A stretch of 48,568 nucleotides of DNA, taken from positions 1 to 48,568 of the forward strand of contig CAZNIA010000002.1 in the NCBI GenBank assembly GCA_964572995.1, read 5' to 3'. The position numbers were made by a program, and so were the translations under genes. This DNA is from Candidatus Woesearchaeota archaeon (GTDB lineage Archaea; Nanobdellota; Nanobdellia; Pacearchaeales; GW2011-AR1). Below, one piece after another: positions 4,208 through 24,951 of the stretch. Every line of letters starts with the position of its first letter. Positions within the stretch are counted from its first letter, which is position 1. The notes beneath the pieces were generated by a model, which saw nothing but the letters and a program-made list of their open reading frames with translations, was not told the DNA's origin and searched no databases.

Positions 4208-4726
4208 ATGGCAGAAGAAGTAACTTTTTTGCAAAGTCCACTTTTAACTAATTTCGTATATCCTTTTTTACTTATTTTCTTTATACTTTTTGCAGTTCTT
4301 GAAAAATCAAAATTATTCGGGGATAAAAAAACCCAGATTAATGCTTTAATCTCATTTATAATTAGTTTTATTTTTGTCTCTGCTGTATTCCCTAAGGAAA
4401 TGGCAGGTAACTTAATGCTTTTCCTTTCTATAGCATTAGTTGTTATTTTTGTTGTTTTGGTTTTATGGGGATTTATTATGGGAGAGAATGGACTAAAGAT
4501 ATTTGAAAATTCTCCTAAGGGACTTAAATGGGCAATAGGAATATTTATTTTAATTGCAGTAATTTTTGCAGTTCTTTGGGCAGGAGGAGTAGATACATCA
4601 GGATTTTTTGATGATTTGTTTAATTCTTCCTGGAGCAGTAAGTTTTGGAATAATGTTGTATTCATAGTTTTAGTTGCTGTTGCTTTGGCAGTTATGATTG
4701 CTACAGGCAAATCAAAAAGCAGTTAG
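4208..4726 (+). CDS. integral membrane protein, tandem paralogue 1 (172 aa)
   Basis: 4-5 hydrophobic helices. An AAGGAG lies upstream. Same length and similar N-terminus as the next gene (YPFLLIFFILFAVL vs ILPFLLIFAIIYSVL). Confidence 0.6.
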   Translation: MAEEVTFLQSPLLTNFVYPFLLIFFILFAVLEKSKLFGDKKTQINALISFIISFIFVSAVFPKEMAGNLMLFLSIALVVIFVVLVLWGFIMGENGLKIFENSPKGLKWAIGIFILIAVIFAVLWAGGVDTSGFFDDLFNSSWSSKFWNNVVFIVLVAVALAVMIATGKSKSS

Positions 4727-4760: not shown

Positions 4761-5279
4761 ATGGCAGGTGAAATATTTGCAAGATTGGAAGCTATGGGGC
4801 TTTTTGAATATATATTACCTTTTCTTTTAATTTTTGCAATAATTTATTCTGTTTTGTCTTTTGTTAATATTTTCAAAAACAATAAAGCAGTGAATGCTGT
4901 TATTTCTTTGGCTGTAGCATTAATGGCATTGCAATTTGATCTTGTTTCTTATTTCTTTGCAGATATTTTTCCTAGATTAGGTATTGCACTTTCAATAATC
5001 TTGGTCTTACTCATATTAGGTGGAATGTTCTTGGATTGGGATAATAAAGGAATGAAGTGGTTCTTATTTATTGTGGTTGCAGTAACTGTGATTGCTGTTG
5101 CTTGGGGACCATTAAGAAATATTGGATTGTTTAGTGGAATTTCTTTTAATTTCCTTGGTGCAGATATGCTTAGTTTAGGAGTAATTGTTTTAGTAGTAAT
5201 AGGCTTTTTCTGGATAATTTTTAATGGAAGTGGAAAAGTGAATATAGGTGATGCTCCTGTTAGAAATCCTACAAGATAA
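4761..5279 (+). CDS. integral membrane protein, tandem paralogue 2 (172 aa)
   Basis: Same length and hydrophobicity layout as 4208..4726, with recognisable sequence similarity in helix 1 and the following loop. Confidence 0.6.
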   Translation: MAGEIFARLEAMGLFEYILPFLLIFAIIYSVLSFVNIFKNNKAVNAVISLAVALMALQFDLVSYFFADIFPRLGIALSIILVLLILGGMFLDWDNKGMKWFLFIVVAVTVIAVAWGPLRNIGLFSGISFNFLGADMLSLGVIVLVVIGFFWIIFNGSGKVNIGDAPVRNPTR

Positions 5280-5337: not shown

Positions 5338-6069
5338 TTATCTTCTTCCTTTTGGAGTCTTTTTTTCTTCAGCTCTTTCATGTAAAACCGGAACCATCTT
5401 TTCAAAAGATTCTTGCATCATGCCCATTTCGTTTTTTATAGAATTTAAGTCTTTTCCGTAAGAACCGATTTTTTCAATTATAGCTATTTGCAATTTATCT
5501 ATTACAGATTCTATACGTTTTATTCTTTCATGGTCATTGGTTATTCTTGTTTCAACAAGAGTTGCAAATTCATTAAGGGCATTTATTTGTTTTTGTTCTT
5601 TTTTTATTTTTTCAGAGAATACTTGTTCGGCTATTTCAATTATAGTATCTGTATCATATGCTCCTCCTTGCATTTGTGATTCAGAATAACCTTCTTGAGG
5701 TATGTACTGTTCCTGACCGTATTCTGTGTTGTACATCTGATTTTGCATATTTTCATCAAATTGTTGCATTTGAGGTGCCATTGGTTGAGGAGAATAAAAC
5801 TCTCTGGAATCATGTTCTATCTCTTGAGTTTTCGGAGTGTATAAAGGAGAGGATTGAGGTGCAGGAGGAGCAGGGGGATTTTTCATTATTGAAGGTTCCA
5901 TGTTTTCTTCTCCGGCGTACTCAGCAGAAATAGCGTTTTTTATTCTTATTTGATTAAATGCATCTTCAATTGCTTTCGGAGAAACGCCTTTTTCTTTTAG
6001 ATTTTTAGCTATCTCGCTATCTTCCATTCCCTGCGCTTTCATATTGTTTATATCTTCTAATGTTCCCAT
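5338..6069 (-). CDS. hypothetical protein: small helical N-domain, P/Q-rich linker, C-terminal coiled coil
   Basis: Long ORF. The middle is low-complexity (PPAPPAPQSSP, QPMAPQMQQ). The C-terminal ~100 aa show a heptad-like pattern. Confidence 0.55.
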   Translation of the reverse strand: MGTLEDINNMKAQGMEDSEIAKNLKEKGVSPKAIEDAFNQIRIKNAISAEYAGEENMEPSIMKNPPAPPAPQSSPLYTPKTQEIEHDSREFYSPQPMAPQMQQFDENMQNQMYNTEYGQEQYIPQEGYSESQMQGGAYDTDTIIEIAEQVFSEKIKKEQKQINALNEFATLVETRITNDHERIKRIESVIDKLQIAIIEKIGSYGKDLNSIKNEMGMMQESFEKMVPVLHERAEEKKTPKGRR

Positions 6070-6084
6070 TTTTTATTTAATGTT

Positions 6085-6429
6085 TTAGTTGTTTTTTAAT
6101 TTTTCTAAATCTGCCTTTGTTACAAACTCTAGTGGTTGAAACATTTTAGCTTGTTTTGAAAGTATCTCAACTTCCTCCTTTTTTGCAAATTTTGAAAATT
6201 CTGAAGATGCACTTTCAAAAAAAGATTTTAATCTTTCTGTGTCTCTTTTTAAAATTTCTATTTCTTTTTTTATACTCAAGAAAACAGAATGCACTTCTTC
6301 TTTCATTTCTATAAGATTCTGTCCAATTAGCAAAACTCTGTCTTTTATTATTCTTTGTTTATCTTCCAAATCTCTTATTTTTGTGCTTATCTCTGTAAAA
6401 TACTGGTTTTCATACTCCTCTTCAACCAT
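6085..6429 (-). CDS. hypothetical coiled-coil protein
   Basis: Heptad-rich 114 aa starting at the ATG at 6429 (MVEEEYENQ). The track start at 6474 is a TTG lying inside the divergent promoter region. Confidence 0.5.
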   Translation of the reverse strand: MVEEEYENQYFTEISTKIRDLEDKQRIIKDRVLLIGQNLIEMKEEVHSVFLSIKKEIEILKRDTERLKSFFESASSEFSKFAKKEEVEILSKQAKMFQPLEFVTKADLEKLKNN

Positions 6430-6475
6430 ATTCACTAAATGTAAAGCGAGTTTAAATTTGTTTGGATTATACAAA

Positions 6476-6485
6476 ATATTTTAAA
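6476..6485 (+). promoter_or_regulatory. TATA-box-like element for the filament ATPase gene
   Basis: AATATTTTAAA is centred about 27 nt upstream of the ATG at 6507. This spacing fits a leaderless archaeal transcript. Confidence 0.35.
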
Positions 6486-6506
6486 CTCCAAACTATTTTT
6501 TTGATT

Positions 6507-8795
6507 ATGCAATTTGAAAAAGGTGAAGCACTTTATTCTCATGAAGTTAAGAGAGAAGGGGGAGAGGATGTCTTATATATCAATTATATGGGGGCTCCTT
6601 ATGTTCCTAGTCTTTCAGAGCATCCTGAAGTTATGGAGAGGACAATTGACTCTTTGATTGAAAATCCTAATGCATCCAGGATTGTTTTTGTTCAACAAAA
6701 AAATTACAATTATGATTTTAGGGAAACAGGTTATCTTTTAGAAATAGCTCAGCTGTATGTTTTTCTCATTAAACAGGAGAGAGTCTTAAGTCAAGAGAAA
6801 TTGATAACTTCTAATTCAGAATTTTTTCCTAAAAGATATAATGAAGTTTTTTCTTTTTTATATCTTCTTAAGAAAGATCCGTTTGCAGCATATTTTCATC
6901 TTAGAAAAATTTTACTTGAAGCTAAAATTCTTGCAGATAAATTTACAGGTATTCTTAGATTGGATCAGAAAAATTATATTTCTCTTATAGAGAAAATTTT
7001 GGAGATGTTTTCTAAATCAAAACTTATTCAGTCATTTCAACAGTTTGTTAAAGACTATAGAAGAGGCGACAGAGAGATTTACAATAATTTTTTTAGTCCA
7101 GATGTTATAGCTAATTTTACATTTACCAGATTAGTTTCAGATTTACCTTCTGACGCAGAAATAATTTCACAATATAAAATTTCAAATGGAGAACATGATG
7201 AGTCCTTTGTAACTATTTTAAGAAGAAAAGATGAAGCTAAATTAATTTATCATCTTGTTCCTCCAGAAAATACTCTTACTGAAGATCAAAGTTCAATTTT
7301 AAATTTAGCAAGAAGTGTTTTAATAGAACATCAACCAAAGGCAGAGGAATTTACAGATACTGAGAGGATAAGACAGGTTTTTATGAATATTGCCCGTGAT
7401 TTAATAAGAGATTTATCCCAGACAAAGGGAGTTAAATTGGATTATTCTTCCCTTAATAAACTTGCCTCCATTTTGGTAAGGCATACTATTGGTTTTGGTG
7501 TTGTTGAGGTATTGCTTCAAGATAAAAATCTTCAAGATATTTCATTGAATGCTCCTATTCCTCAAACTCCTATTTTTGTGAGACACCAGGAATATGACGA
7601 ATGTGTTACAAATATTCTTCCTAGTCAGGAAGATGCAGATTCTTGGGCAGCAAAATTCAGAATGATTTCTGGAAGGCCATTAGATGAGGCAAATCCTATT
7701 TTAGATACTCAGCTTGAGATTGGAAATTTAAGAGCAAGAATTTCAATAGTTCAGCCCCCATTATCTTGTGATGGTTTAGCTTATTCAATAAGAAGACACA
7801 GAGAGAGCCCGTGGACTCTTCCCCTTTTTGTTAATAATAAAATGCTTAATCCTTTTGCAGCAGGACTTTTAAGTTTTTTAATTGATGGTGCAAGAACTTT
7901 GCTTGTTGCAGGAACAAGAAGTTCAGGTAAAACTTCTTTGCTTGGGAGTTTAATGCTTGAAATTGTTCCAAAGCACAGGATAATTGTTATAGAAGATTCT
8001 TTGGAATTGCCTGTTGATTCTTTAAGAAAATTGGGTTATGATATTTTAAGAATGAAAGTGCGTTCTGCTCTTTTGAAAACAACAACAGAAGTTTCTGCTG
8101 ATGATGGTATAAGAACAAGTTTAAGACTTGGAGATAGTTGCTTAATTATTGGAGAAGTGAGAAGCGTTGAGGCTAAAGCTCTTTATGAAGCTATGAGGGT
8201 TGGAGCTCTTGCAAATGTTGTTGCAGGTACAATTCACGGTGCATCCCCCTATGGTGTTTTTGATAGAGTAGTTAATGATTTAGGAGTTCCTATTACTAGT
8301 TTTAAAGCTACAGATTCAATAGTAGTTTGCAATCCAATTAAATCTCCAGATGGATTGCATTCATGGAAGAGATTGATTCAACTTTCTGAAGTAAGAAAAC
8401 ATTGGACTAAAGATCCTCTTGCAGAAAAAGGATTTGTTGATTTAATGAAATATAATATTGAAAAAGACGAAGTTGAGCCAACAGAGGATTTAATAAATGG
8501 AGATAGTGAAATAATAAAAAATGTTGCTTCTAATGTAAAAGGATGGGCAGGAAATTGGGATGCTGTTTATGATAATATTCTTTTAAGGGCTAAAATGAAA
8601 AAAGAGATAGCAGAGGTTTCAAAGAAAATAGAAAACATGGATTTATTGGAGTCTAAATTCAATACATTATCTAATCATGCTTTCCATAGAATTTCAGATG
8701 AAATTATTCAAGAAATTGGTTTGCCTGTTGGAGAAAGAGTTTTCCCGGCATGGCAAGAATGGTTGAATAAAGAAATTAAAAAAAATGTTATTTAA
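6507..8795 (+). CDS. type II/IV secretion (FlaI/PilB/VirB11-type) filament assembly ATPase, oversized
   Basis: Walker A AGTRSSGKTS (nt 7911-7937), Walker B-like RIIVIEDSLE, IGEVRSVEA (Asp/Glu box region) and TIHG (His box). Start set to the ATG at 6507 (MQFEKGE). Confidence 0.8.
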   Translation: MQFEKGEALYSHEVKREGGEDVLYINYMGAPYVPSLSEHPEVMERTIDSLIENPNASRIVFVQQKNYNYDFRETGYLLEIAQLYVFLIKQERVLSQEKLITSNSEFFPKRYNEVFSFLYLLKKDPFAAYFHLRKILLEAKILADKFTGILRLDQKNYISLIEKILEMFSKSKLIQSFQQFVKDYRRGDREIYNNFFSPDVIANFTFTRLVSDLPSDAEIISQYKISNGEHDESFVTILRRKDEAKLIYHLVPPENTLTEDQSSILNLARSVLIEHQPKAEEFTDTERIRQVFMNIARDLIRDLSQTKGVKLDYSSLNKLASILVRHTIGFGVVEVLLQDKNLQDISLNAPIPQTPIFVRHQEYDECVTNILPSQEDADSWAAKFRMISGRPLDEANPILDTQLEIGNLRARISIVQPPLSCDGLAYSIRRHRESPWTLPLFVNNKMLNPFAAGLLSFLIDGARTLLVAGTRSSGKTSLLGSLMLEIVPKHRIIVIEDSLELPVDSLRKLGYDILRMKVRSALLKTTTEVSADDGIRTSLRLGDSCLIIGEVRSVEAKALYEAMRVGALANVVAGTIHGASPYGVFDRVVNDLGVPITSFKATDSIVVCNPIKSPDGLHSWKRLIQLSEVRKHWTKDPLAEKGFVDLMKYNIEKDEVEPTEDLINGDSEIIKNVASNVKGWAGNWDAVYDNILLRAKMKKEIAEVSKKIENMDLLESKFNTLSNHAFHRISDEIIQEIGLPVGERVFPAWQEWLNKEIKKNVI

Positions 8796-8885
8796 TTTTC
8801 TTAATATAAAAATTATGTATTTTTTTAATTCTCCAAAGATTTATTAATTCTTTTTGATTAATGAAATTAAAATAAAGAGGGAATT

Positions 8886-11063
8886 ATGCCGCCATATAAA
8901 AAACCAAGTGTTGATGAAATTCTTGCAAATTACGGTAAGAAAATTGAAGGACAAATAAATACAACTGATATTGTAACAACCAAAGACAGTAGGGCTTATT
9001 TAAGATTTAAAGAAGAGACCAAAAAAGAATTTACTAATTATGAAAGATGGTGTAATACCCTTGGGAGCGTTGTTAAGCTTAATCCTTCTAAAAAAGATGA
9101 AGAAAAGATAAAAAAGGATATTGAGATAGCACATATGAATATTGAACCTTGGCAGGCAATAACTTTGAGTGTTGTAGTTTTTGTTGTTGTTTTTTTTATG
9201 GGTTTGCTTTTTTCTCTTGCATATATGTTCATTAGCGAAGCAGGAGATTTTCCCCTTTTATTTTTTGTTCTTATACTTTCTTTAGCTATGTTTTTGTTTT
9301 ATTATTTTAGTGGTTATCCTGCTCGTTTTGCTAATAAATGGAGATTGAAAGCTTCTTCTCAAATGGTTCCAGCAATACTTTACGTTGTAGTATACATGAG
9401 GCATACAGCTAATTTAGAGAAAGCAATAGCATTCGCTTCTGAACATTTGCAATATCCTCTTGCATTGGATTTTAAAAAAATATTTTATAATGTTGAAATA
9501 GGGAAATTTCCAACGATAAAAGAGAGTTTGGATCATTATCTTGAAGGATGGAGAGAGTATTCAACTGAATTTATAGAATCATTTCATTTAATTGAGAGCA
9601 GCTTGTATGAGCCAGATAGAGTCAGAAGAATATCTACTTTGGAAAAAGCAATTCAAGTAGTATTAGATGGGGTTTATGATAAGATGCTTAAATTTACTCA
9701 TGATGTGAAGGCTCCATTAACTAATGTATACATGCTTGCAATAATGCTCCCTATCTTGGGAATTGCTTTAATCCCTTTAGCATCTGCAATGGTTCAAGGA
9801 ATGATAAAATGGTCTCATGTTTTTATTTTATACACTATGATAATTCCTTTTTTAGCATTTTTTATGTTGGATAAGATACTCGCTTTAAGACCAGGAGGAC
9901 ATGGTGAAACTTCTTATCTTGAAAAAAATCCATTATATCCTCAATATAAATCAAATGGGCCTTATGTTTATGCTTTTTTAATTTGTCTTCCATTTATTCT
10001 TTTAAGTTTGCTTCCTTTAATTTTTCAATATACCCCTATACCAGATATTTTAGGATTACAGAAAGATTATTCTTTTGCAGATTTAGGTTTGGAGTTTGAA
10101 GGAGCAGCGCAGATAATGCTTTTTGATTTTAAAGCAACAGAAAATGGCTTTGCTGGACCTTTTGGAGCTGTTTCTCTTTTTTTAAGTTTGTTTTTTCCGT
10201 TGGGGGTAGCTTTGTTTTTTGCAATAGCTTATAAAGATAAAACAGAAAATATAATTGTTGAAAGAAATAAGACTCATCAATTGGAGAGAGAATTTAATAA
10301 TTCTTTATTTCAGTTAGGAAATAGATTAGGGGATGGAACTCCTCCTGAACTTGTTTTTGGCAAAGTTGCAGAATCTTCTAAAGGGCTTATAACCGGAGAA
10401 TTTTTCAAAAGAGTCAATTATAATATTCAACAAATGGGTATGAGCGTAGAGAAATCTATCTTTGATTCTAGAAGAGGAGTTATCTTGTTTTATCCTTCAG
10501 ATTTAATTGCAACTAGCATGAGAGTTCTTGTGGAATCTTCCAAGAAAGGACTTAAAATAGCAGCAGTAAGTTTAATGAGTATCTCAGAGTATGTTAAAAA
10601 TATACAAAAAATAACTGAACGTCTAAAAGATATCTTAGCTGAGATAGTTTCTGAAATGAAAAGTAACATGACTTTTTTGGCACCTTTACTTTCAGGAATA
10701 GTAATAGGTTTAGCTTTGATGATTACTTCTATTCTTAATGTTTTGGAAACGTTCATGGATTCTGCAGGTATAGATGCATCCTTGTCTTCTCAGCTTACCC
10801 AAATTCTATCTATGTTTAATGTTACGGACATGATTCCTCCTTATTATTTGCAGATAGCAATTGGTGTTTATCTTATAGAAGTAATATTTATTTTAACTGG
10901 AACATTGGTTACAATAGATTCAGGAGAAGATGAACTGGAGAAGACAAACAAGATAGGACAGAATCTTAAAAAAGGCATTGTGTTTTACTTTTTAACAGCA
11001 TTTTTCTCTTCTTTAGCTCTTTTTGCACTTTCGATTATAGTTATAGGGGGAATGGGAGGTTAA
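8886..11063 (+). CDS. polytopic membrane protein, candidate FlaJ/TadC/PilC-like platform
   Basis: 725 aa with about 9 or more hydrophobic helices and two soluble loops. It lies immediately downstream of the ATPase. Homology to FlaJ/PilC was not verified. Confidence 0.5.
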   Translation: MPPYKKPSVDEILANYGKKIEGQINTTDIVTTKDSRAYLRFKEETKKEFTNYERWCNTLGSVVKLNPSKKDEEKIKKDIEIAHMNIEPWQAITLSVVVFVVVFFMGLLFSLAYMFISEAGDFPLLFFVLILSLAMFLFYYFSGYPARFANKWRLKASSQMVPAILYVVVYMRHTANLEKAIAFASEHLQYPLALDFKKIFYNVEIGKFPTIKESLDHYLEGWREYSTEFIESFHLIESSLYEPDRVRRISTLEKAIQVVLDGVYDKMLKFTHDVKAPLTNVYMLAIMLPILGIALIPLASAMVQGMIKWSHVFILYTMIIPFLAFFMLDKILALRPGGHGETSYLEKNPLYPQYKSNGPYVYAFLICLPFILLSLLPLIFQYTPIPDILGLQKDYSFADLGLEFEGAAQIMLFDFKATENGFAGPFGAVSLFLSLFFPLGVALFFAIAYKDKTENIIVERNKTHQLEREFNNSLFQLGNRLGDGTPPELVFGKVAESSKGLITGEFFKRVNYNIQQMGMSVEKSIFDSRRGVILFYPSDLIATSMRVLVESSKKGLKIAAVSLMSISEYVKNIQKITERLKDILAEIVSEMKSNMTFLAPLLSGIVIGLALMITSILNVLETFMDSAGIDASLSSQLTQILSMFNVTDMIPPYYLQIAIGVYLIEVIFILTGTLVTIDSGEDELEKTNKIGQNLKKGIVFYFLTAFFSSLALFALSIIVIGGMGG

Positions 11064-11114
11064 ACTAATTTTTATTTAAGTAAATTTTATTAACTATGTT
11101 TTTTTATATTATCT

Positions 11115-11273
11115 ATGAAAAATAAATGTAAAAAAGGAGTGGTATCAGAATATCTTCCTTGGCTCTTGATTGCATTGGTTCTTTTAGTTGTGGTTATGAT
11201 TTCAATATTTTTTCTTAGAGAAAAAGGAGTTTCTTTGATAGACCAAATTAAAAATATTTTTAGGAGAGGATAA
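11115..11273 (+). CDS. micro-ORF (52 aa), prepilin-like (class III signal peptide)
   Basis: Not in the ORF track. MKNKCKKG|VVSEYLPWLLIALVLLVVVMISIFFL has a charged leader, a KKG cleavage-type site and a hydrophobic helix. Its stop overlaps the next ATG (TAATG). Confidence 0.45.
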   Translation: MKNKCKKGVVSEYLPWLLIALVLLVVVMISIFFLREKGVSLIDQIKNIFRRG

Positions 11274-11437
11274 TGGAACTTACTATAGAGAATTTAATTA
11301 AAATCTTGTTAGGTATTGTGGTTGTGGCTGCTGTTTCTTATGGAATTTATTATTTTTTTAGTAATAATGTAATAGATTTATTTAAAAATGTAGGGGTAAA
11401 TTCCACAGGTAAATTTTTTATGGGACTATTTTTGTGA
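11273..11437 (+). CDS. micro-ORF (54 aa), single-TM protein
   Basis: Not in the ORF track. MELTIENLIKILLGIVVVAAVSYGIYYFF... It is chained to both neighbours with 0-1 nt spacing. Confidence 0.4.
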   Translation: MELTIENLIKILLGIVVVAAVSYGIYYFFSNNVIDLFKNVGVNSTGKFFMGLFL

Positions 11438-11438
11438 A

Positions 11439-11945
11439 ATGATACCATTTAATAAAAAAGGCTTTTTATTGGCAGAAGAAACATTGAAAATAATTATTGC
11501 AGTTATATGTGTACTTTTTTTAGTTTATCTTTTAGCTGCATTATATAATACTAATTCTTCTGATAAAAAATTGAATCAAGCTAAAGAAGTCCTTACTGTT
11601 ACTGATGAAGATTCGAGAAGTATTGAAGCTATTATTTTATCTTTAAAGGAAGGAGATGAGGAAGTAAAGGATATTTCACAACCTTCTGGGTGGTATCTAT
11701 ATAGTTTTGTTGGACAGGAGAGACCTAATTCCTGTTTAAATCAGAGGTGTTTATGTATCTGTCAAAAACCACTTATTGAAAAAATTAATTCTCGTGCTGA
11801 AAAATGTGATGATAAAGGGGTTTGTTTAGTTGTTCCTAATCTTGCAGCATCTGAAATTAACTTGAAGATTGGTTCAGGTAGGAGCGCATTATTTTTAGAA
11901 ATTAAAAAACAAAGCGGCAAAGTTTTCATAGAGGAGAGAATATGA
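11439..11945 (+). CDS. prepilin-like protein with a bacterial-style G|F...E5 N-terminus and a Cys-rich globular part
   Basis: MIPFNKKG|FLLAEETLKIIIAVICVLFLVYLL. Cys cluster CLNQRCLCICQ...CDDKGVC. Confidence 0.6.
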   Translation: MIPFNKKGFLLAEETLKIIIAVICVLFLVYLLAALYNTNSSDKKLNQAKEVLTVTDEDSRSIEAIILSLKEGDEEVKDISQPSGWYLYSFVGQERPNSCLNQRCLCICQKPLIEKINSRAEKCDDKGVCLVVPNLAASEINLKIGSGRSALFLEIKKQSGKVFIEERI

Positions 11946-12043
11946 GTTTTGATGAGGTAATAAAGTATTTAATCTGGATAATCTTTTTTGGTCTGGCTAT
12001 TGTAGGGATTATAGCTTTACTTAAAAAAATGGGTGTTGCATAA
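11942..12043 (+). CDS. micro-ORF (33 aa), single-TM protein
   Basis: Not in the ORF track. MSFDEVIKYLIWIIFFGLAIVGIIALLKKMGVA. Its ATG overlaps the upstream stop (ATGA), and its stop lies 1 nt before the next ATG. Confidence 0.35.
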   Translation: MSFDEVIKYLIWIIFFGLAIVGIIALLKKMGVA

Positions 12044-12044
12044 A

Positions 12045-12989
12045 ATGATTGAAAAAAAAGGAGAAATAACTACACAGCAGATTGTTTTATTGATAATTTT
12101 AATAGTTAGTTTTATTGTTATTCTTCTTCTGATTGTGGGATTTGATTTTTTTGCTCAGTCAGATAAAGAGATCTGTCACAATTCTGTTGTTATGAGGGGA
12201 ACAAAACTTCCTGATGCTGTAACTCCTTTAGATTGTTCAAGAGAGTATATTTGCATAAGCGAAGACGGAAGTTGCGAAAAGATGATTAAACCAGATGTTA
12301 TTAAAGTTAAAACAAAAGAAGAAGTTTATTCTGTTCTTGCAGAAAAGATGGCTGATTGTTGGTGGATGTTTGGAGAGGGAAAAATAAATTATGTTGATCC
12401 GGCATGGAAAAAGAAAAATTATTGTTCAATTTGTACTCAATTAGTTTTGGACAACAGCTTAGAAAATCTAGAAGGAATAGATGGAAAAATAAATCAGGAT
12501 AATTTTTATGCTTATCTTTCTAAAACTAAGATGCCTGATAAAGATGAAAGTTATGCCGCATATCTTTTTGGAGGAGAGGATATAGAGAGACTAAAAAGAG
12601 ATTTATCTAGAAGAGCAGGGCAAGAAGTTACTTTTGGAGAGATTGAATTTAATAAGCCGTATTTTATAGTTATGGGAATTACAAGTGAAGTTAATAGGTA
12701 TACTTGGTATCTTGGAGGAGCAGTCATTGGAGGAGTAGCAGTTATTGGTGCAGCTACGGGAGGGCTTGGCGTTGCAACTGTTTTTACTATTTTAGCAGGA
12801 AATGTAGCAGGAGGAGCAGTTATTGGAGAAGGAGGAATTCAATTTTCTGATTTACTTTCTCCTAAGATAGGAGCAATAGTTGTTGATGGAGACGGCATAA
12901 ACAATAAATTTATGGTCCCTACAATTCAAGAAGCAACTTCAAATGAATTTGATTTATTAAGTTGCGATGAGATAATAACTACCGCTTAG
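12045..12989 (+). CDS. prepilin-like protein (314 aa) with a Cys-containing globular domain and a Gly-rich hydrophobic C-terminal segment
   Basis: MIEKKG|EITTQQIVLLIILIVSFIVILLLIV. The track start at 12033 is a GTG. Gly-zipper-like GGAVIGGVAVIGAATGGLGVATVFTILAGNVAGGAVIGEGG. Confidence 0.6.
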   Translation: MIEKKGEITTQQIVLLIILIVSFIVILLLIVGFDFFAQSDKEICHNSVVMRGTKLPDAVTPLDCSREYICISEDGSCEKMIKPDVIKVKTKEEVYSVLAEKMADCWWMFGEGKINYVDPAWKKKNYCSICTQLVLDNSLENLEGIDGKINQDNFYAYLSKTKMPDKDESYAAYLFGGEDIERLKRDLSRRAGQEVTFGEIEFNKPYFIVMGITSEVNRYTWYLGGAVIGGVAVIGAATGGLGVATVFTILAGNVAGGAVIGEGGIQFSDLLSPKIGAIVVDGDGINNKFMVPTIQEATSNEFDLLSCDEIITTA

Positions 12990-13023
12990 ATAATTTTATT
13001 AATAAGATTTTCATGTTTTTATT

Positions 13024-13440
13024 ATGAATAAAAGAGGAACTATTTTAGTGGAGAATATTGTTTTTTTAATCTTAAATTTACTTTTTCTTTCAATTCTTGT
13101 TTTGTTTTTATTAAGGCAGGGAGGAGGTGCTATTGTTTTGGAAGAAGCGTATTCAAAACAGATAGCAATGGTTATTGATTCTGCAAAGCCAGTTATGATA
13201 ATTCAATTAGATATGGAAAAAGCAAGAAAACTTGCAGAATCAAGAGGAATAGATTTTTCAGAAGCAGTTAAAATAGATGGGAATGTTGTAAGAGTTAAAT
13301 TAACTCAAAAGAGCGGATATTCTTATTCTTTTTTTAATGATGTGGAAGTTTCTTCTAGGGCAATTAAAGATAGTAAAGGAAAATATACTGGGATGTATTT
13401 ATTTTTTGTACAAGAAAAAGGGGTTAATTCAAATGGATAA
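13024..13440 (+). CDS. prepilin-like protein
   Basis: MNKRG|TILVENIVFLILNLLFLSILVLFLL, with Glu at +5 after the putative cleavage site. Confidence 0.6.
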   Translation: MNKRGTILVENIVFLILNLLFLSILVLFLLRQGGGAIVLEEAYSKQIAMVIDSAKPVMIIQLDMEKARKLAESRGIDFSEAVKIDGNVVRVKLTQKSGYSYSFFNDVEVSSRAIKDSKGKYTGMYLFFVQEKGVNSNG

Positions 13441-13494
13441 AAAAGAAAATATAAAATTTTCAATTTTACCTTTTATAAAAAAAGATAAAAAAGG
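13433..13494 (+). repeat. 62-nt direct repeat, copy 1 (5' end of a prepilin-like gene)
   Basis: ATGGATAAAAAAGAAAATATAAAATTTTCAATTTTACCTTTTATAAAAAAAGATAAAAAAGG. It differs from copy 2 at 2 positions by hand alignment. Confidence 0.85.
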
Positions 13495-14020
13495 TGCAGA
13501 TAAAATTCTCTCAATTTACTGGTTTGTTGTTTTAACTCTTGTGGCTGGAGGGGTTTTTGCAATGGTATATGTTTTTTATGGTGCTCCTTCAGATGTTAGA
13601 GAAATCGAAGCAGAATTGCTTGCGCAGAAATTAGCACATTGCATTTCTAGGAATGGTTTAATTGAAGAGAATCTTTTTTTGAATGGGAAGTTTAATCCAG
13701 TTATAAGAACATATTTTACAGATAGATGCGGAATTACCTTTAATGTTGAAGAAGGGTATGCAGATGAAAACCAGATACAATATTTTTATGATATTGAATT
13801 TTACAGTGTACAGGATTTAGTTAATCCAGAGTTTGTAATCTCAGATGGAAATCTTAATTGGAAAGGAGAGTGTTTTATTGAAAAAAGTAATTCTAAAGAT
13901 TATCTTAGATTAGTTAAATGTAAGGAAAGAAGGTTTTATGCTGTTGATAGCGGAAAGAATCAATATTTAATTAAAATTTTATCCGGGGTAGGTAAATCTG
14001 AAAAAAATGTTAGAAAATAA
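13433..14020 (+). CDS. prepilin-like protein with a 21-aa leader (paralogue A)
   Basis: MDKKENIKFSILPFIKKDKKG|ADKILSIYWFVVLTLVAGGVFAMVYVF. The start is chosen by comparison with the paralogue at 14266 and overlaps the upstream stop by 8 nt. Confidence 0.6.
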   Translation: MDKKENIKFSILPFIKKDKKGADKILSIYWFVVLTLVAGGVFAMVYVFYGAPSDVREIEAELLAQKLAHCISRNGLIEENLFLNGKFNPVIRTYFTDRCGITFNVEEGYADENQIQYFYDIEFYSVQDLVNPEFVISDGNLNWKGECFIEKSNSKDYLRLVKCKERRFYAVDSGKNQYLIKILSGVGKSEKNVRK

Positions 14021-14273
14021 GAAAGCTCAAGTTGGTGAAACTATTACTTGGATAATAGCAACAATAATATTAATTGGAATTTTAATTGTATTTTTGTTTA
14101 TTTCTGTTTCTTTATCTAAATTAAAGTCGTTTAAAGCAGATATTAAAGTTAATTCAGAAGAATCGGTTGACTGGATAGAGCTTAAGACAGAAATGGCTTA
14201 CTCTATTAGTTCAGAGAATAAAAATAGAATAAATCTTTGGATTTCCAAAGAAGGGGTATATGATGATGGATAA
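14007..14273 (+). CDS. prepilin-like protein
   Basis: MLENKKA|QVGETITWIIATIILIGILIVFLFI. Confidence 0.6.
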   Translation: MLENKKAQVGETITWIIATIILIGILIVFLFISVSLSKLKSFKADIKVNSEESVDWIELKTEMAYSISSENKNRINLWISKEGVYDDG

Positions 14274-14327
14274 AAAAGAAAATTTAAAATTTTCAATTTT
14301 ACCTTTTATAAAAAAAGATAAAAGAGG
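14266..14327 (+). repeat. 62-nt direct repeat, copy 2
   Basis: ATGGATAAAAAAGAAAATTTAAAATTTTCAATTTTACCTTTTATAAAAAAAGATAAAAGAGG. Confidence 0.85.
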
Positions 14328-14586
14328 AGATATTCCTTTAACTGTTTTAGTTATAGGCGTTTTTGCAGTTTGTATTTTAGCTTTAATTAGTTTTATTTAT
14401 GTTTCTTATAAAGTGAATAAATCTTTTGTAGGTATTGAGATAATGGAGAATGCAAATGCACAAATAGAAGAAGGTCAGCTTAATCATATTTATCTTTATA
14501 AAAAAGTTACGAAGTTGTCTCCTGAATGGGGTTTTGATTGGTTTAAAGAAAGAATAATTTTTTCTGTTGAATATAATCCCAGATAG
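14266..14586 (+). CDS. prepilin-like protein with a 21-aa leader (paralogue B)
   Basis: MDKKENLKFSILPFIKKDKRG|DIPLTVLVIGVFAVCILALISFIYV. The first 62 nt are near-identical to 13433-13494. Confidence 0.6.
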   Translation: MDKKENLKFSILPFIKKDKRGDIPLTVLVIGVFAVCILALISFIYVSYKVNKSFVGIEIMENANAQIEEGQLNHIYLYKKVTKLSPEWGFDWFKERIIFSVEYNPR

Positions 14587-14663
14587 ATTTTATATTAAAA
14601 ATATTGAAAGAAAGGTTTTTAAATAAGTGTTGAGTAAATAAATTATTAAATAACAAAAAGAAG

Positions 14664-14999
14664 ATGATAAACAAAAAAGGTCAAGGTATGAGTATAAGCA
14701 CAATAGTGCTTCTTGTTTTGGGGCTTATTATACTAGTTGTATTGGTTTTAGGATTTGTTCTTGGATGGGATAAAATTGTTCCATGGATAGGGGGGGGAAC
14801 TAATTTAAACAATATTGCTACTGCTTGTACAACTGCTTGTTCTACAAATGCAGTATATGATTATTGTTCTATTATGAGAGAAGTTAAGGATGGGGAAAAT
14901 GATAAGTTTGAAGCTAATTGTAATGATTTAGCTACTAAACCTCAATATGTATCAAGAGGATATGGAATTTCTCCTTGTCCTGCGATAACTTGCCCTTAA
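14664..14999 (+). CDS. prepilin-like protein, candidate major pilin (own promoter, 6 Cys in the mature domain)
   Basis: MINKKG|QGMSISTIVLLVLGLIILVVLVLGFVLGW is a textbook archaeal class III signal peptide. A 77-nt AT-rich spacer with TTTTTAAATA precedes the gene. Confidence 0.7.
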   Translation: MINKKGQGMSISTIVLLVLGLIILVVLVLGFVLGWDKIVPWIGGGTNLNNIATACTTACSTNAVYDYCSIMREVKDGENDKFEANCNDLATKPQYVSRGYGISPCPAITCP

Positions 15000-15032
15000 T
15001 TAAATTTTGATTGAATTTATTTATACTTGAAA

Positions 15033-15146
15033 ATGTCTAACTCTGCTGCTTCTGAAAGAAGAAATAAAGGAAAAGATAAACGTAAAGAAAAAAAGAAACA
15101 TCCTTATAGAAAAGGTGGAAAATATAGAGTTGTTGAACTTAAGTAA
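15033..15146 (+). CDS. micro-ORF (37 aa), highly basic peptide
   Basis: Not in the ORF track. MSNSAASERRNKGKDKRKEKKKHPYRKGGKYRVVELK. It lies between the pilin gene and the peptidase gene. No homology recognised. Confidence 0.3.
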   Translation: MSNSAASERRNKGKDKRKEKKKHPYRKGGKYRVVELK

Positions 15147-15176
15147 ATTTATAAATTAAATTTACTACTTTTGTTG

Positions 15177-16022
15177 ATGGCAATAGAAGAGGTGTTTTTG
15201 ATAGTTTTTAGTTTAGTTTGGATTATATTTGCAGTTGTGCAAGATTTAAGAAAAAGAGAAATAGCAAACTGGCTTAATTTTTCTTTTGTGATCTTTGCTT
15301 TAGCATTCAGGTTTTTCTTTTCTTTGTTTACAGAAGAAGGATTCAATTTCTTTTACCAGGGAATTATTGGTTTTGCAATATTTTTTATTGTGGGGAATCT
15401 TCTTTATTATGGAAGAGTATTTGCAGGAGGAGATGCTAAATTAATGATTGCTTTAGGGGCTGTGCTTCCTATGTTTGATAATTTCCCTTCTAACTTATAT
15501 TTTTTCTTGGAATTTCTTTTATTCTTTTTAGTTGTTGGTGCAATTTATGGTGTAATTTTTGGAGTTGCTTTAGCAATAAAACATAGGAAAAACTTTACCA
15601 AGGAGTTTTCAAAACAAATAAAGAAAAGTAAAAATGTTTTTTATTTACTTGTTGTTTTAGGAACATTATTACTTTTTTTGTCTTTTGTTAATTCCCTTTT
15701 CTTTTATCTTGCTATCTTGTTTTTCATTTCTCCTTATATTTATTTTTCTGCAAAAGCAATAGATGAAGCATGTATGGTTAAAGAAGTTGAATCAAGGCTT
15801 CTTACAGAAGGAGATTGGCTTTATTTTAATATAAAAATAGGAAAGCGAGTTATTGAAGCAAGATGGGGTGGATTAAACAAGAGTGAAATAGATTTTTTAA
15901 GAATGCACAAGAAAAAAGTTAAAATAAGAGAGGGAATACCCTTTAGCCCGGTTTTCTTGATAAGCTATGTTTTTATTTTGATTTCTTATTTTTTATTTGA
16001 AGGAATTAAGGTATTCTTTTAG
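15177..16022 (+). CDS. A24-family prepilin/preflagellin peptidase (PibD/FlaK/EppA-like)
   Basis: First catalytic-Asp context AVVQDLRKREIANWL and second AGGDAKLMIAL. Polytopic. GIPFSPVF lies near the C-terminus. The track start at 15171 is a TTG; the ATG is at 15177. Confidence 0.7.
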   Translation: MAIEEVFLIVFSLVWIIFAVVQDLRKREIANWLNFSFVIFALAFRFFFSLFTEEGFNFFYQGIIGFAIFFIVGNLLYYGRVFAGGDAKLMIALGAVLPMFDNFPSNLYFFLEFLLFFLVVGAIYGVIFGVALAIKHRKNFTKEFSKQIKKSKNVFYLLVVLGTLLLFLSFVNSLFFYLAILFFISPYIYFSAKAIDEACMVKEVESRLLTEGDWLYFNIKIGKRVIEARWGGLNKSEIDFLRMHKKKVKIREGIPFSPVFLISYVFILISYFLFEGIKVFF

Positions 16023-18053: not shown

Positions 18054-21000
18054 ATGAAAAGAGGTTTAATTTTATGTTCGATATTTTTAATATTTTTAAG
18101 TGGGTTTGTTTCTTCAGAAATAATTTCAACTAATCTCCAGGTTTATCCTTCCATACCTATTTCTTCACAAAACCTTAGTTGTAATTTTAGTGTTTTAAGT
18201 AATTCTTCTAGTTTGGGTATTACTGCAGAATATGTTTGGTATAAAAACGGAAAAATTAATTTTAGCAATTCTTTTCTTATAAATAATAATACTCAATATT
18301 CTATTTCTTTGCTTTCTGGAAATACTACTGAAAATGATATATGGGTCTGCAGTTTAAGATTTAATGATAGCGTATATACAAATTATTTTAATTCAAGTGT
18401 ATTTGTTAGAGGAGAACTTTCAATTGATAGAGCTTTAATTAATTACAGAAACTCTAGCAATAGGTTGGTTTGGGGAAAAATGCTTGAGAAAAGATTGGTT
18501 GGAGAAGGAGCTATATATAATTCAGATATGGGTTCTTATTTTGGGCGTGCTCCTATGGTTTTCAATGAAGATGGAAGTGAAGCCCATGTTGTTTTTAGAG
18601 ATGGGGGTTATAATTTAAGAATTTACAAATTTAATTGGATTAATTGGGCCGAAATGCAGAATCAAGGTGCTGCAAATCGTAGAGGTTCAATCTCTGTTGA
18701 TAGATATGGAGATACTTTAATTGCTATTTGGGGAGATAGTGATTTAGATGATGAACCTCCTGTTTATTCAATTTCTTTGGATGGGGGAACTACTTGGAGT
18801 AGTGAAGAATTTATTCCTTCTGCATATAATAAATTTGGATATGGGAATACTTTAGAGTTTAAATTTTTAGATGATGGAACTGGTATCGCTATTTGGAAGT
18901 CTTATGATTCAGGGATAGGATGGGCTTATGCTTATTGGAATGGTACAGGGTGGGAACATTTAGGAATTGTTTTGGATTCTAATACTGGAGCAGTAGGTAG
19001 GGCTGATTTATCTATTCTTCCTGAAGGAAGGGCTTTTTTAATTTATCAGAATTCAAATCCTCGTGTTTATTCTTGGAATGGAAGCGGTTTTAGTGATGAT
19101 GTTTATTTAGACACTTCTACAAATGGAGATGATCATAATGGCCCTACAATTGATTGTAATAGAAATGGGCAGTGTATTGCTGTTTGGACTGATTCAACTT
19201 ATGAACAAGAGTATATGAGATATAATGGGAGTTCATGGATTGGATTACCCAATATAGACATTGATGGAACAAGTTCTTGGAGTGATTCTCATGCGCAGGC
19301 TCCAAATGATATTCAGGTAGATGATGAAGGGAACGCTTTTTTGATTTGGTATGATGAGTCGGAAGTTGATGTTCTTTATGCAACTTACAATTGGTCAACA
19401 GATAGTTGGACACAAGGACAAGATTTTATTTCTTATACTACTTCAGACATTGAATATGGGGATAGTGCTCAGGTAGCTCTTGTTCCTTTGAATCAAGAGA
19501 TGTTTGCACTTCCAATTGAAGTAACTGCTATTTTAAGCGACGACGAAGTTTTTAAAAATGAATCTGTTCAAGGATATTGTTCTTCTTTGGATTTAGATAA
19601 CGAATCTGTTAATTATGTTTATAGATGGTATAGAAATGGATTGTATAATTATTCAGGTAATTTTTCTGGATTTGCTAATGGTACATCTATTTTAGCAGAT
19701 ACTTTGTTTTCAAACAAAACTTCTAGAGGAGATACTTGGACTTTTTCTTGTTCTGCAAATGATGGAAATGGACAAGTATTTAGTTCTAATGTTAGTTTTT
19801 ATGTTGTTACTCCTAGAAATTCTCTTCATTTTGAAAATTCATTTCCATTATCTGTGGATGATTTAATTTGTAATTTAAGTGTTATTAATCCAGAAGTCCC
19901 CACCGGATTAACTGCGTACTATACGTGGTATAAAGATGGGGTTTTACAATCTTCAGGAAATTTTCCTGCAAGTCATTCCGAAAGTTATGAATTAATTATG
20001 AGCAGTGATAATACTAGAACAGATGAAATTTGGACATGTTCTGCAATGGTTTCAGATGGTGTGGTTAATGGTACTTGGAAAAATACTTCTGTTATTGTTC
20101 GTATGAAGACTTCTATTTCTGATGCGTTTGTGACTTGGAATGATGCAAGTTATCGTCCTATTTGGACTGCAATAACTGGAAATAATTTTAGTAATAAAAC
20201 AATTAGTTCTACTAGAGTTTTATCTTCTGGAGGTTCAAATCTTGTAAGATTTGTTTTAAGCCCTGGATTGTATGATGGAAAGCTTATTTATAATGCTGCA
20301 GATGGAGATATTTACATGTTTGATTGGAATGGCACTTCTTGGGGAAGTGAAACTATGTTTGCAGATCAATCAGATACAGACAACACATACGATGTTGCAA
20401 GGTTTGGAGATACAATCATTGTTCTATGGGGAATCTCTGATTCATCAGTACCGTATTATCGGATTTCTAGGAATGGGGGAAGCACTTGGAGTACTCAAAC
20501 AAGGATAGAATCCTCAACTTATGGTAAATTTTCCTATCATTCTGGTTTAGATTTTGAATTTTTAAGTGATGGAACAGGACTTTTACTTTATAAGCATTCA
20601 GATGGTACTACCGGTTGGATTTGGTCTTTTTGGAATGGAAGTATTTTTTCTGAATCTGGGATTTTAGATGAAACAGATGATGGTCAACATGCAAAAGCTA
20701 GTATTGCAGCTTTGGAAAATGGGAAAGCATTTGTTGTTAGACGTAGTGGAGATATGTCTCAAGTATACCTAAATAAATGGGATGGAACAATTTTCGAATC
20801 AAGGGTTACTTTAGATTCAACTACTTTTGGTTATCCTGGGGGACCAGAAATTGAATGTAATAGATATGGAAATTGTTTAATGGTTCATAGAGCTTCAGAT
20901 GGAAATTTGGAATATATGAGGTATAATGGTTCTTCTTGGAGTGAACAAGATGTGAATGTTGATGGAGCTTTAACATGGTCAATTAATTATGAGAATTCAG

Positions 21001-23615: not shown

Positions 23616-24466
23616 GGAGTATTAATAATATAAAAGGATTATGTTTGTTTATCTTTTTTATTTTGAGTTTTAACTTAATATTTGCTGAACAAGAGTTAGC
23701 TTTAGAAGATAAAGCTAGATTATGTTTAGATAATTCTGAGATAACCTTAAATGAGCTTAAAGATAATAACTTTAATTATCAAAGGGTTGAAGATCTTTTA
23801 ATTAAAGCCAAAAGCATCTATGATGCCCAAATTATTTTGTTTGAGAATGGAAAATCTGTTGATTTTTCTTTAGTTTTTCCATATTGTGAAGAAATAGCAA
23901 ACATAAGAAATTTTGCTTTTGATGTGGAAGATAAGTACTCTTCACTAAAGAAATTTTATGAAGCATCTATAACTCCAGATATGAATTCTTCTAGTATTGA
24001 AAAATTATTTTTGGAAATAGAAGAAGAGATAGATAGTGAGAGATATGAAAGAGTTCCGGAATTGATAAATAAGGCATATGAGGAGATTAGTGTTGTTAAG
24101 TCTTCTAATACAAAATTAAATTTATTTTATAAATCAACAACAAGAAGTTTTAAGAGATTCATTGAAAAGAACTGGATAATCATTCTGGTGTCTACTTTGT
24201 TAATCTTACTTTTCTTTCTTATATTTAACAAAAAAATAAAGATTTTTATTATAGAGAGAAATATAAAAAATCTAGAATTAAGAAGAAAGACAATACAAGA
24301 TCTTATGAAAGAAACTCAATTGGATTATTTTCAAAAAGGAGTTATTTCTCAAGGTAATTTTAATTTAAGAACCAAAAAATTTGCAGAATTTGTTAGAGAT
24401 ATTGATAGACAAATCCCTCTTTTAAGAGAGGATTTAATAAAATTGAGAAATCCACATAAAAGATGA
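23612..24466 (+). CDS. membrane protein repeating the stalk/TM/coiled-coil-tail architecture of the giant protein
   Basis: ATGA overlap with the upstream stop. N-terminal signal-like helix, ~160-aa helical ectodomain, TM (WIIILVSTLLILLFFLIF). The tail motif LELRRKTIQDLMKETQLDYFQKGVISQGNF parallels LEEEEKLLLELMKVVQRDCFQRNKLSMEEY in the giant protein. Confidence 0.7.
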   Translation: MRSINNIKGLCLFIFFILSFNLIFAEQELALEDKARLCLDNSEITLNELKDNNFNYQRVEDLLIKAKSIYDAQIILFENGKSVDFSLVFPYCEEIANIRNFAFDVEDKYSSLKKFYEASITPDMNSSSIEKLFLEIEEEIDSERYERVPELINKAYEEISVVKSSNTKLNLFYKSTTRSFKRFIEKNWIIILVSTLLILLFFLIFNKKIKIFIIERNIKNLELRRKTIQDLMKETQLDYFQKGVISQGNFNLRTKKFAEFVRDIDRQIPLLREDLIKLRNPHKR

Positions 24467-24921: not shown

Positions 24922-24951
24922 TTTTTTAAACTAAATAGTTTATATTCTATT

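Follow-up and report, generated by a model that had tools for sequence, protein, structure and literature searches.

We examined a 48,568-nt stretch of the Candidatus Woesearchaeota archaeon contig CAZNIA010000002.1 (hereafter the window, whose positions supply all coordinates unless another locus is named) and found a locus that probably encodes a complete, non-motility type IV filament machine, i.e., a type IV pilus, that would be a conserved core feature of Pacearchaeales/Woesearchaeales-type DPANN (Diapherotrites, Parvarchaeota, Aenigmarchaeota, Nanoarchaeota plus Nanohaloarchaeota) archaea, with host attachment or envelope engagement as its likeliest role. The machine reads as complete because four hallmarks are present: an assembly ATPase, a platform protein, eight prepilin-like proteins and an A24 peptidase. 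An earlier note on this DNA had placed an ATPase, a 725-aa membrane protein, eleven small genes and an A24 peptidase on one strand, and all were recovered where it had put them, on the forward strand (Table 1); its reading of a non-motility filament is likewise supported by the presence of the hallmark components and the absence of archaellum genes from the locus. The window is AT-rich (~30% GC) and carries archaeal informational genes (RadA, Hef-type helicase/XPF, EF-1beta, an RPA-like OB-fold protein, SRP54/FtsY, and ribosomal proteins L1 and L10). Our comparison set comprised 82 distinct related loci (designated L001, L002 and so on), with gene order scored at single-sequence phmmer sensitivity.

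Evaluating the motor, we found that the ATPase matches Pfam T2SSE above the cut-off (E 1.2e-14), while among NCBIfam models it scores best with TadA (125 bits, E 4.4e-36) and FlaI (116 bits, E 1.4e-33), followed by TrbB (64 bits), BasE (63 bits, E 1.8e-17), VirB11 (58 bits, E 8e-16), ComGA (40 bits) and PilT (21 bits). In the PDB, Archaeoglobus fulgidus GspE (2oap; E 2.2e-26, 96 bits) and CpaF (E 1e-24, 90 bits) come ahead of FlaI (E 7e-13) and VirB11 (E 1e-5, 27 bits). The concern that the protein might fall in a non-filament VirB11 clade is eased by these values, in that TadA, FlaI, A. fulgidus GspE and CpaF all score far better than VirB11, a comparison of relative scores only. Across 59 orthologues the protein keeps Walker A (GTRSSGKTS), the Walker B/Asp box (IIVIEDSLE), GEVRS and the His box (GTIHG), and its highly conserved N-terminal extension of ~230 aa lies outside all family and PDB matches, including that to A. 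fulgidus GspE. We predict it to be a PilB/GspE/FlaI/TadA family assembly ATPase, as the type IV filament (TFF) superfamily has.

The 725-aa polytopic protein itself has no Pfam, NCBIfam or PDB sequence match, and PDB searches with the protein alone and with profiles A1 and A2 gave nothing significant (a sub-threshold EpsF match, E 0.48, lies at FQLGNRLxxGxP). An exhaustive HMMER search with it gathered ~1000 clusters of relatives, down to 24% identity, and T2SSF (Pfam) is matched by 14 of 45 distant full-length relatives (best E 3.2e-10), in the N-terminal half of some and the C-terminal half of others. An AlphaFold2 model (predicted local distance difference test, pLDDT, 71) was matched by Foldseek to the cytoplasmic domains of EpsF (2vmb, 3c1q), OutF (5nbg) and PilC (2whn) and to SpoIIIAB (6bs9), at probabilities of 0.9-1.0 and target-normalised template-modelling scores of 0.6-0.67. 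With direct searches empty, it is these transitive Pfam hits and the fold comparison that assign the protein, as a putative divergent, single-gene TFF platform of the GspF/PilC/TadC/FlaJ type, and they answer in the affirmative whether it is related to platform proteins at all.

Leaders were scanned in all window open reading frames (ORFs) by combining the [KR]-[GA] motif with Kyte-Doolittle hydropathy over 18 residues. All eight charged leaders with a hydrophobic helix that had been claimed for the small genes were recovered exactly (the slash in Table 1 marks the predicted cleavage site), and the 18 residues after each have a mean hydropathy of 2.25-3.8. The motif occurs in 8 of the 11 small genes of the locus versus about two spurious matches, one VKOR and one M50-like protein, among the ~48 other ORFs of at least 100 aa (Fisher p = 3e-6). 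For every one of these genes, orthologues from 50-70 other genomes keep leader and helix, so the leaders are not accidental. To judge from their sequence, they are class-III-type leaders conserved over dozens of genomes, as had been asked of the small proteins, and eight genes are predicted to encode cleaved class III signal peptide (SPIII) subunits of a TFF. The NKKG-type leader and helix form the best conserved part of every family except s2, and profile-profile comparison (hhalign) finds the nine families alike only over their first 30-50 residues; such a likeness, confined to the N-terminal module, is the type IV pilin pattern. We therefore call these small proteins pilins on the strength of leader, helix and genomic context together.

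Beyond this shared module the subunits differ. The smallest prepilin, s1 (KKG/VVSEYLPW...), keeps its KKG leader, SEYLPW motif and helix in 70 orthologues, has no globular domain (mature length ~44 aa), and appears to resemble Flp and EpdE pilins in size and E-Y motif. Its neighbor s2 is a leaderless single helix (MELTIENLIKILLG...) conserved in 60 loci, and because residues 2-37 of s2 align with residues 8-42 of s9, just past the cleavage site (hhalign probability 90%), it looks like a pilin helix, or mature pilin N-terminus, that lacks a leader. In s3 (KKG/FLLAEE...), F at +1 and E at +5 are followed by a Cys-rich C-terminal domain (7 cysteines, CLCIC motif invariant); s5 (G/TILVE) also has Glu at +5, and s7 and s9 have Gln at +1. 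The largest prepilin-like subunit, s4 (KKG/EITTQQ...), combines an alpha/beta domain that has 8 conserved Cys with a Gly/Ala-rich, glycine-zipper-like hydrophobic segment of ~40 residues (residues 223-261, positions 12711-12827), the composition of which is conserved across orthologues and the sequence of which is not. Its AlphaFold2 model (pLDDT 73) has an N-terminal helix at residues 10-32 and is uneven in confidence, with pLDDT 80-97 in the alpha/beta domain and 30-39 in the Gly-rich segment, and one homologue from the Joint Genome Institute is auto-annotated 'SlyB'. The four genes s5, s6, s7 and s8 are each a separate orthologous family, alike between families only in leader and helix. Lastly, s9 has 6 conserved Cys (five invariant, one at >=90%) and varies in length across loci (~110-195 aa, with longer outliers in one locus), with tandem duplicates in some. 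As a separate observation, an 80-nt direct repeat (89% identical, 13415-13494 and 14248-14327) spans the ribosome-binding-site region and leader of s6 and s8, which share an unusually long 21-aa leader, MDKKEN[IL]KFSILPFIKKDK[KR]G. In most orthologues the leader is short, for which reason the repeat looks like recent gene conversion.

The peptidase matches Pfam Peptidase_A24 (PF01478) above the cut-off (E 6.5e-13) and NCBIfam FlaK below it (4.8e-12), both catalytic Asp motifs (QDLxxREI and FAGGDAKL) are conserved in 48 peptidase sequences, and there is no methyltransferase domain. We predict an A24 class III signal (prepilin) peptidase with both catalytic Asp residues, as a TFF machine needs. 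The FlaK match, together with the FlaI match of the ATPase, both below curated cut-offs, is what speaks for a reduced archaellum, i.e., a motility organelle, an explanation to which we give almost no credence. No archaellin, ArlF/G, ArlC/D/E or ArlX match (Pfam, NCBIfam) occurs in the locus, which bears out the claim that archaellum accessory genes are missing from it; the ATPase has a long N-terminal extension, unlike minimal archaellum ATPases; and the nearest KaiC-like gene lies 9 kb off, inside an insertion absent from relatives. That gene (24952-25734) was considered as ArlH and rejected, as it scores 44 bits versus a cut-off of 215, is not conserved beside the locus and is a generic KaiC.

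The genes of the locus are closely packed. Overlapping or abutting stop and start codons join s1/s2, s2/s3, s3/33-aa ORF, 33-aa ORF/s4, s5/s6, s6/s7 and s7/s8, so that the chaining described from the window is confirmed, and relatives show the same, with median gaps of -14 to +1 nt; s1-s3 and s5-s8 are translationally coupled. The AT-rich spacer and TATA-like box noticed before s9 are also real features, with TTTTTAAA at 14616 conserved across loci. In the 80 nt 5' of s9, 44 of 54 loci (81%) have the octamer TTT[AT]TAAA, and 30 of 47 (64%, with the window copy at 15148) have it 5' of the peptidase gene, versus 0.04 expected per 80 nt and 0-19% of loci for the other genes of the locus. It is usually preceded by a purine-rich stretch, and for both genes the ORF start follows it by a median of 29 nt. 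We predict a conserved, TATA-like promoter for s9 and another for the peptidase gene. Because it combines its own promoter-like box with variable length and occasional tandem duplication, s9 is the best candidate for the major subunit on present sequence comparisons, and the Flp-like s1 remains the alternative. A scan for sigma-70 promoters and terminators, uninformative for an archaeon, gave no enrichment, with 56 promoter-like sites versus 49 expected and 8 terminator-like sites versus 4.3 expected.

Two micro-ORFs complete the set. The 33-aa ORF, which overlaps the end of s3 and abuts s4, occupies the same position in 56 loci (tblastn), is called as a gene in two of them (L002 and L003) and encodes a leaderless protein with Asp-Glu at positions 4-5; substitutions at codon positions 1/2/3 number 605/322/865, a coding-type pattern. 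The 37-aa ORF, between s9 and the peptidase promoter, is conserved in position in 50 loci with substitutions of 322/287/590, and its product has no Pfam or NCBIfam match. With position conserved and substitutions concentrated at third codon positions, both are real genes.

To place the locus among its relatives, we evaluated how far its components and their order extend. A large protein collection contains more than 3100 homologues of the 725-aa protein; the closest 120 have 66-94% identity, and the named ones among them are from Pacearchaeota, Woesearchaeota, Nanoarchaeota, Nanobdellota or 'Diapherotrites' metagenome-assembled genomes (MAGs). In a scan of one genome per GTDB species, at least 573 genomes encode the platform, and the best 80 of these are labelled as the same DPANN groups, besides unclassified archaeal MAGs and two 'bacterial' records. 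These two, L044 (DATJPO010000041.1, 'Candidatus Omnitrophota bacterium') and L055 (DAITPU010000001.1, 'bacterium'), both hold a full archaeal locus and are probably mis-binned or mislabelled contigs. Orthologues of each small gene occur in 50-70 of the 82 loci, and the identical order platform-s1-s2-s3-s4-s5-s6-s7-s8-s9-peptidase is found in 37 of the 57 loci with enough downstream DNA, most of the remaining 20 having the same order with one or two members undetected. The earlier description of the locus as unusually pilin-rich stands as far as eight prepilin-like genes are present and fails as a peculiarity of this genome, as the set is orthologous, fixed and shared lineage-wide. Local paralogue expansion was likewise rejected, given that each gene has its own orthologues, the order is fixed and mutual likeness is limited to the N-terminal 30-50 residues; the high number of pilin-like genes is instead a fixed, ancient architecture of the Pacearchaeales/Woesearchaeales-type lineage. 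The spacer between ATPase and platform genes takes up variable insertions; it is 90 nt long in the window, with a median of 664 nt over the loci, and holds a 179-aa protein, a 591-aa glycosyltransferase of family GT4 and a 67-aa ORF in L001 (7443-9931) and a 189-aa TPR-like protein in L003 (9372-9941).

In the same loci, ATPase and platform have median identities to the window copy of 74% and 65%, comparable to RadA (79%), Hef helicase (70%), RPA (60%) and EF-1beta (46%), so the motor is as constrained as core informational proteins. Such constraint suggests housekeeping transport and raises a rival reading, that of a short pseudopilus of the type II secretion or Com kind, working as a piston that exports proteins (e.g., hydrolases) or imports DNA or nutrients. 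The gsp and comG operons likewise hold several minor pilin-like genes in one coupled operon, and the fixed, strongly conserved minor pilin-like set seen here would match them; organisms of this kind must also scavenge nucleotides (PMC8204110). We nonetheless consider a pseudopilus quite unlikely. Within the window, neither ComEC nor DprA nor any gene for a secretion substrate is linked to the locus, the dedicated promoter, length variability and duplications of s9 fit an abundant, exposed fibre subunit, and functionally known archaeal members of the ATPase clade make pili or archaella (bioRxiv 10.64898/2026.04.22.720090).

For the preferred reading of a type IV pilus, established knowledge of type IV filaments suggests how the parts might work together. 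The A24 peptidase would cleave the eight precursors after [KR]-[GA], and an ATPase hexamer docked on the platform would pull processed subunits from the membrane and polymerise them through their N-terminal helices. The fibre would be formed by s9 as the major subunit, the translationally coupled s3-s8 would make up a complex of minor pilins for initiation or at the tip, in which the large s4 is the likely distal or contact subunit, and the helix-only s1, s2 and 33-aa protein would sit in the fibre core or base. Retraction is unlikely, because there is a single ATPase. The assembled filament would serve host attachment and host envelope engagement, and in part of the lineage it would be aimed at bacterial walls.

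Several points weigh against this reading. No small protein is significant against any pilin family in Pfam, NCBIfam or the PDB (143 orthologues were also scanned against Pfam); the best sub-significant matches are the archaeal pilins 8fjs (E 0.6) and 8fk7 (E 0.41) and, among the 143 members, Flp1_like in four (E 4e-4), and PDB profile searches with the s9 and s3 alignments likewise gave only non-significant archaeal pilin matches. The s4 globular domain has no recognisable PDB fold match (Foldseek probability <=0.08). Promoter and variability are the only grounds for preferring s9 to s1 as the putative major subunit, a highly conserved motor with a fixed set of minor pilins would be in keeping with a pseudopilus-type transport machine as well, and filament, cleavage and expression in this organism are predicted from its genes. 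Finally, s5-s8 of the window carry no hydrolase domains and no window ORF matches Amidase_2 or SLT, so that any link of the window locus to murein, as set out below, is drawn from its relatives.

The most informative relatives emerged from the Pfam scan of the 143 small-protein orthologues, in which murein-hydrolase domains were found within minor pilins (Table 1). Amidase_2 is inserted in the s6 orthologues of L063 (E 1.7e-23) and L058 (E 2.6e-23), and the insert recurs in L044, L070, L023 and L075, with an s7-labelled ORF of L026 carrying it too. A lytic transglycosylase domain of the SLT type (E 8e-15) occurs in the s8 orthologues of L073, L035, L068 and L020, in the s5 orthologues of L015, L036 and L019, and weakly in the s6 orthologue of L082. 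The fusion proteins retain class III leader, helix and family-specific N- and C-terminal segments, and their motifs are intact (ES...GLMQI...YNGWG or H...DPGP). In all, pilin-hydrolase fusions occur in ~15 of ~80 loci, and because four different subunits (s5, s6, s7 and s8) are affected, the fusion arose repeatedly.

To our knowledge, archaea of this group do not make murein. Because the hydrolases are built into pilin-like subunits of organisms not known to have murein, a foreign bacterial wall suggests itself as their target, and the amidase or lytic-transglycosylase domains in s5/s6/s7/s8 orthologues indicate that a subset of the relatives probably has a bacterial host. The murein transglycosylases that Pacearchaeota and Woesearchaeota possess have been taken to indicate bacterial hosts or prey (PMC8204110, PMC9723730). 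For many archaeal peptidoglycan hydrolases no Sec or Tat signal is recognised (PMC12352652), and the literature we searched holds no link of peptidoglycan hydrolases to class III leader subunits of a pilus locus. A more far-reaching idea, which we put forward tentatively and think unlikely, is that the filament is a host-envelope-breaching device and more than a simple adhesin, the minor-pilin tip complex of which, as a modular carrier, would present murein hydrolases to bacterial walls while the s4 Gly/Ala segment would act on the host membrane; a membrane-contact role of s4 is speculation.

Subunits functionalised with enzyme domains would also suit a different arrangement, namely a bindosome-like surface display in which class III proteins are anchored or assembled as functional modules without a true pilus, as has been suggested for the Sulfolobus Bas system. 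This reading agrees with the idea that SPIII proteins lend functions to TFF machineries (bioRxiv 10.64898/2026.04.22.720090) and finds some support in the weak match of the ATPase to BasE. At 63 bits (cut-off 1000), however, that match is far weaker than those to TadA and FlaI, most window subunits are small and lack a binding or enzyme domain, and a fibre better accounts for three subunits that are helix only and for an s9 with its own promoter, such that we regard surface display as improbable and retain the type IV pilus.

Comparing the locus with described systems, we find that by its description it fits archaeal TFF System 2 (Makarova et al. 2016, extended in bioRxiv 10.64898/2026.04.22.720090; examples are the Haloferax volcanii pilB/pilC and A. 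fulgidus GspE loci), both in predicted architecture and in that s2 and the 33-aa protein are leaderless. Shared features are an extended ATPase N-terminus, a single platform gene, multiple SPIII pilins, SPIII-less pilin-like proteins, small membrane proteins, and A. fulgidus GspE (2oap) as the best solved relative of the ATPase. Unlike System 2, the locus has a platform too diverged for Pfam T2SSF detection, a fixed set of eight prepilin families with three micro-proteins and an embedded A24 peptidase, and a divergent coiled-coil gene pair, and it is found in DPANN, not Euryarchaeota. The Methanococcus maripaludis Epd pilus (System 1) shares an operon of ~11 genes, ATPase, platform, several minor pilins, a dedicated class III peptidase, Gln at +1 in some leaders (here s7 and s9) and a major pilin without globular domain (cf. 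s1); its platform, however, is split over two genes, versus one 725-aa gene here, which sets the locus apart from System 1. No locus protein matches Pfam Class_IIIsignal/DUF361.

Bacterial machines offer further parallels. The Flp prepilin motif is G/xxxxEY, and the tiny s1 prepilin (G/xxxEY) comes close to it; TadA is also the best NCBIfam match of the ATPase, CpaF is among its best PDB matches, and the peptidase has no methyltransferase domain, as in the Tad/Flp pilus. The locus nevertheless differs from Tad/Flp in having one platform gene versus TadB and TadC, an E-Y motif (G/VVSEY) shifted by one residue, and far more pilin-like genes, most with globular Cys-rich domains, and no secretin, TadZ or TadG match was found, which places it outside that class. 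With bacterial type IVa pilus and type II secretion system priming complexes it shares several minor pilins encoded together with conservation confined to the N-terminal helix, and with bacterial pilins E at +5 (s3, s5) and F at +1 (s3). Muralytic domains tied to a machine recall VirB1, BfpH and FlgJ; those bacterial hydrolases, however, are separate and open the producer's own wall, whereas the ones in the relatives are built into pilin-like subunits.

Loci of this general kind are already known in these DPANN lineages (PMC11291902; bioRxiv 10.64898/2026.04.22.720090). Conserved loci resembling type IV pili, with CpaF, TadC and coiled-coil proteins, were reported across cluster-2 DPANN, with Pacearchaeota and Woesearchaeota among them (Hamm et al. 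2024, Nat Commun 15:6449, PMC11291902), and DPANN TFF systems have been catalogued (Sivabalasarma and Albers 2026, bioRxiv 10.64898/2026.04.22.720090). Our locus shares with the former a CpaF-type ATPase and a TadC-type platform next to coiled-coil-type genes, the coiled-coil families being likened by description only; the loci described in that study are Nanohaloarchaeal and flanked by Mpg, GroEL and GatE, unlike the locus here, and it describes neither the eleven small genes nor the peptidase or hydrolase fusions. In a widely cited study, DPANN genomes were taken to lack type IV pili (bioRxiv 10.1101/2020.05.14.094862), probably because platform and pilins escape standard models. The literature searched appears to lack the anatomy of the locus gene by gene, its two conserved internal promoters, both micro-proteins and, above all, the fusions of pilin and hydrolase in relatives.

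The flanks of the locus are partly conserved. Upstream lie two tandem paralogous 172-aa membrane proteins (m1 and m2), with no Pfam or NCBIfam match, and two coiled-coil-type genes, in the order m1(+), m2(+), coiled-coil(-), coiled-coil(-) in 46 of the 63 loci that hold the ATPase. In 54-55 loci, orthologues of the coiled-coil-type genes stand beside the ATPase gene, at median identities of 43% and 61%, and a crude heptad proxy is positive at residues 142-226 of the 243-aa and 20-102 of the 129-aa protein. Further downstream, a forward-strand block (18054-25734) sits between the RPA-like gene and RadA, which are adjacent in L001. It encodes a giant protein of 1853 aa, rich in Cys and Asn and secreted or anchored, together with two small membrane proteins and the generic KaiC-like ATPase. 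The giant protein has no homologue in any of the 82 loci, and the block is a variable surface-protein insertion. A VKOR-family gene (37616-38023, reverse strand; PF07884, E 6e-19) likely encodes a disulfide-forming enzyme, in keeping with the many conserved Cys of the exported s3, s4, s6, s9 and giant surface protein. A 92-nt tRNA at 34691-34782 (forward strand; Rfam, 54.5 bits), not reported by ARAGORN, may be an intron-containing archaeal tRNA.

Table 1. Coordinates of the filament locus and its upstream neighbors in the window, and of hydrolase-bearing fusion ORFs in related loci (BRE, B recognition element).
Feature	Coordinates	Strand	Remarks
Two tandem paralogous polytopic membrane proteins	4208-4726, 4761-5279	+	172 aa; conserved neighbourhood
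Coiled-coil-type proteins	5338-6069, 6085-6474	-	243 aa, 129 aa; divergent from ATPase gene
ATPase	6507-8795	+	762 aa from conserved ATG 6507 (59 orthologues); longest ORF 6462-8795
Putative platform protein, polytopic	8886-11063	+	725 aa
s1	11115-11273	+	52 aa, leader KKG/VV
s2	11273-11437	+	54 aa, leaderless
s3	11439-11945	+	168 aa, leader KKG/FL
33-aa ORF	11942-12043	+	single-helix micro-protein MSFDEVIKYLIWIIFFGLAIVGIIALLKKMGVA
s4	12045-12989	+	314 aa, leader KKG/EI
s5	13024-13440	+	138 aa, leader KRG/TI
s6	13433-14020	+	195 aa, leader KKG/AD
s7	14007-14273	+	88 aa, leader KKA/QV
s8	14266-14586	+	106 aa, leader KRG/DI
BRE/TATA-like element GAAAGAAAGGTTTTTAAATAAG	14607-14628	+	5' of s9, conserved
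s9	14664-14999	+	111 aa, leader KKG/QG (KKG/QGMSIST...)
37-aa ORF	15033-15146	+	very basic micro-protein MSNSAASERRNKGKDKRKEKKKHPYRKGGKYRVVELK
TATA-like box	15148-15155	+	5' of peptidase gene
A24 peptidase (predicted)	15177-16022	+	conserved start ATG 15177; alternative ORF start 15171
Amidase_2 fusion ORFs	L063:12428-13684, L058:12387-13718, L044:12544-13773, L070:10268-11488, L023:15786-16979, L026:14509-15744		
SLT-like fusion ORFs, s8	L073:13273-14091, L035:13322-14143, L068:13920-14723, L020:10358-11119		
SLT-like fusion ORFs, s5/s6	L015:7759-8799, L036:11096-12091, L019:10618-11631, L082:15120-16208		

DPANN make up a large share of archaeal diversity, and how uncultivated Pacearchaeota and Woesearchaeota contact their hosts is a standing question. 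The lineage would possess a complete and very strongly conserved filament system that standard annotation has largely missed, because Pfam recognises neither the platform nor a single one of the pilins, and the window offers a well-resolved example with eight prepilin families, three micro-proteins and two predicted internal promoters. The more valuable lead lies in the hydrolase-bearing minor pilins of the relatives, which would tie the machine to bacterial walls and offer a testable route to host identity and to how the host envelope is breached. If the envelope-breaching idea were true, the locus would be the core machine by which Pacearchaeota and Woesearchaeota parasitise bacteria, and class III leaders would explain archaeal peptidoglycan hydrolases that lack Sec or Tat signals.

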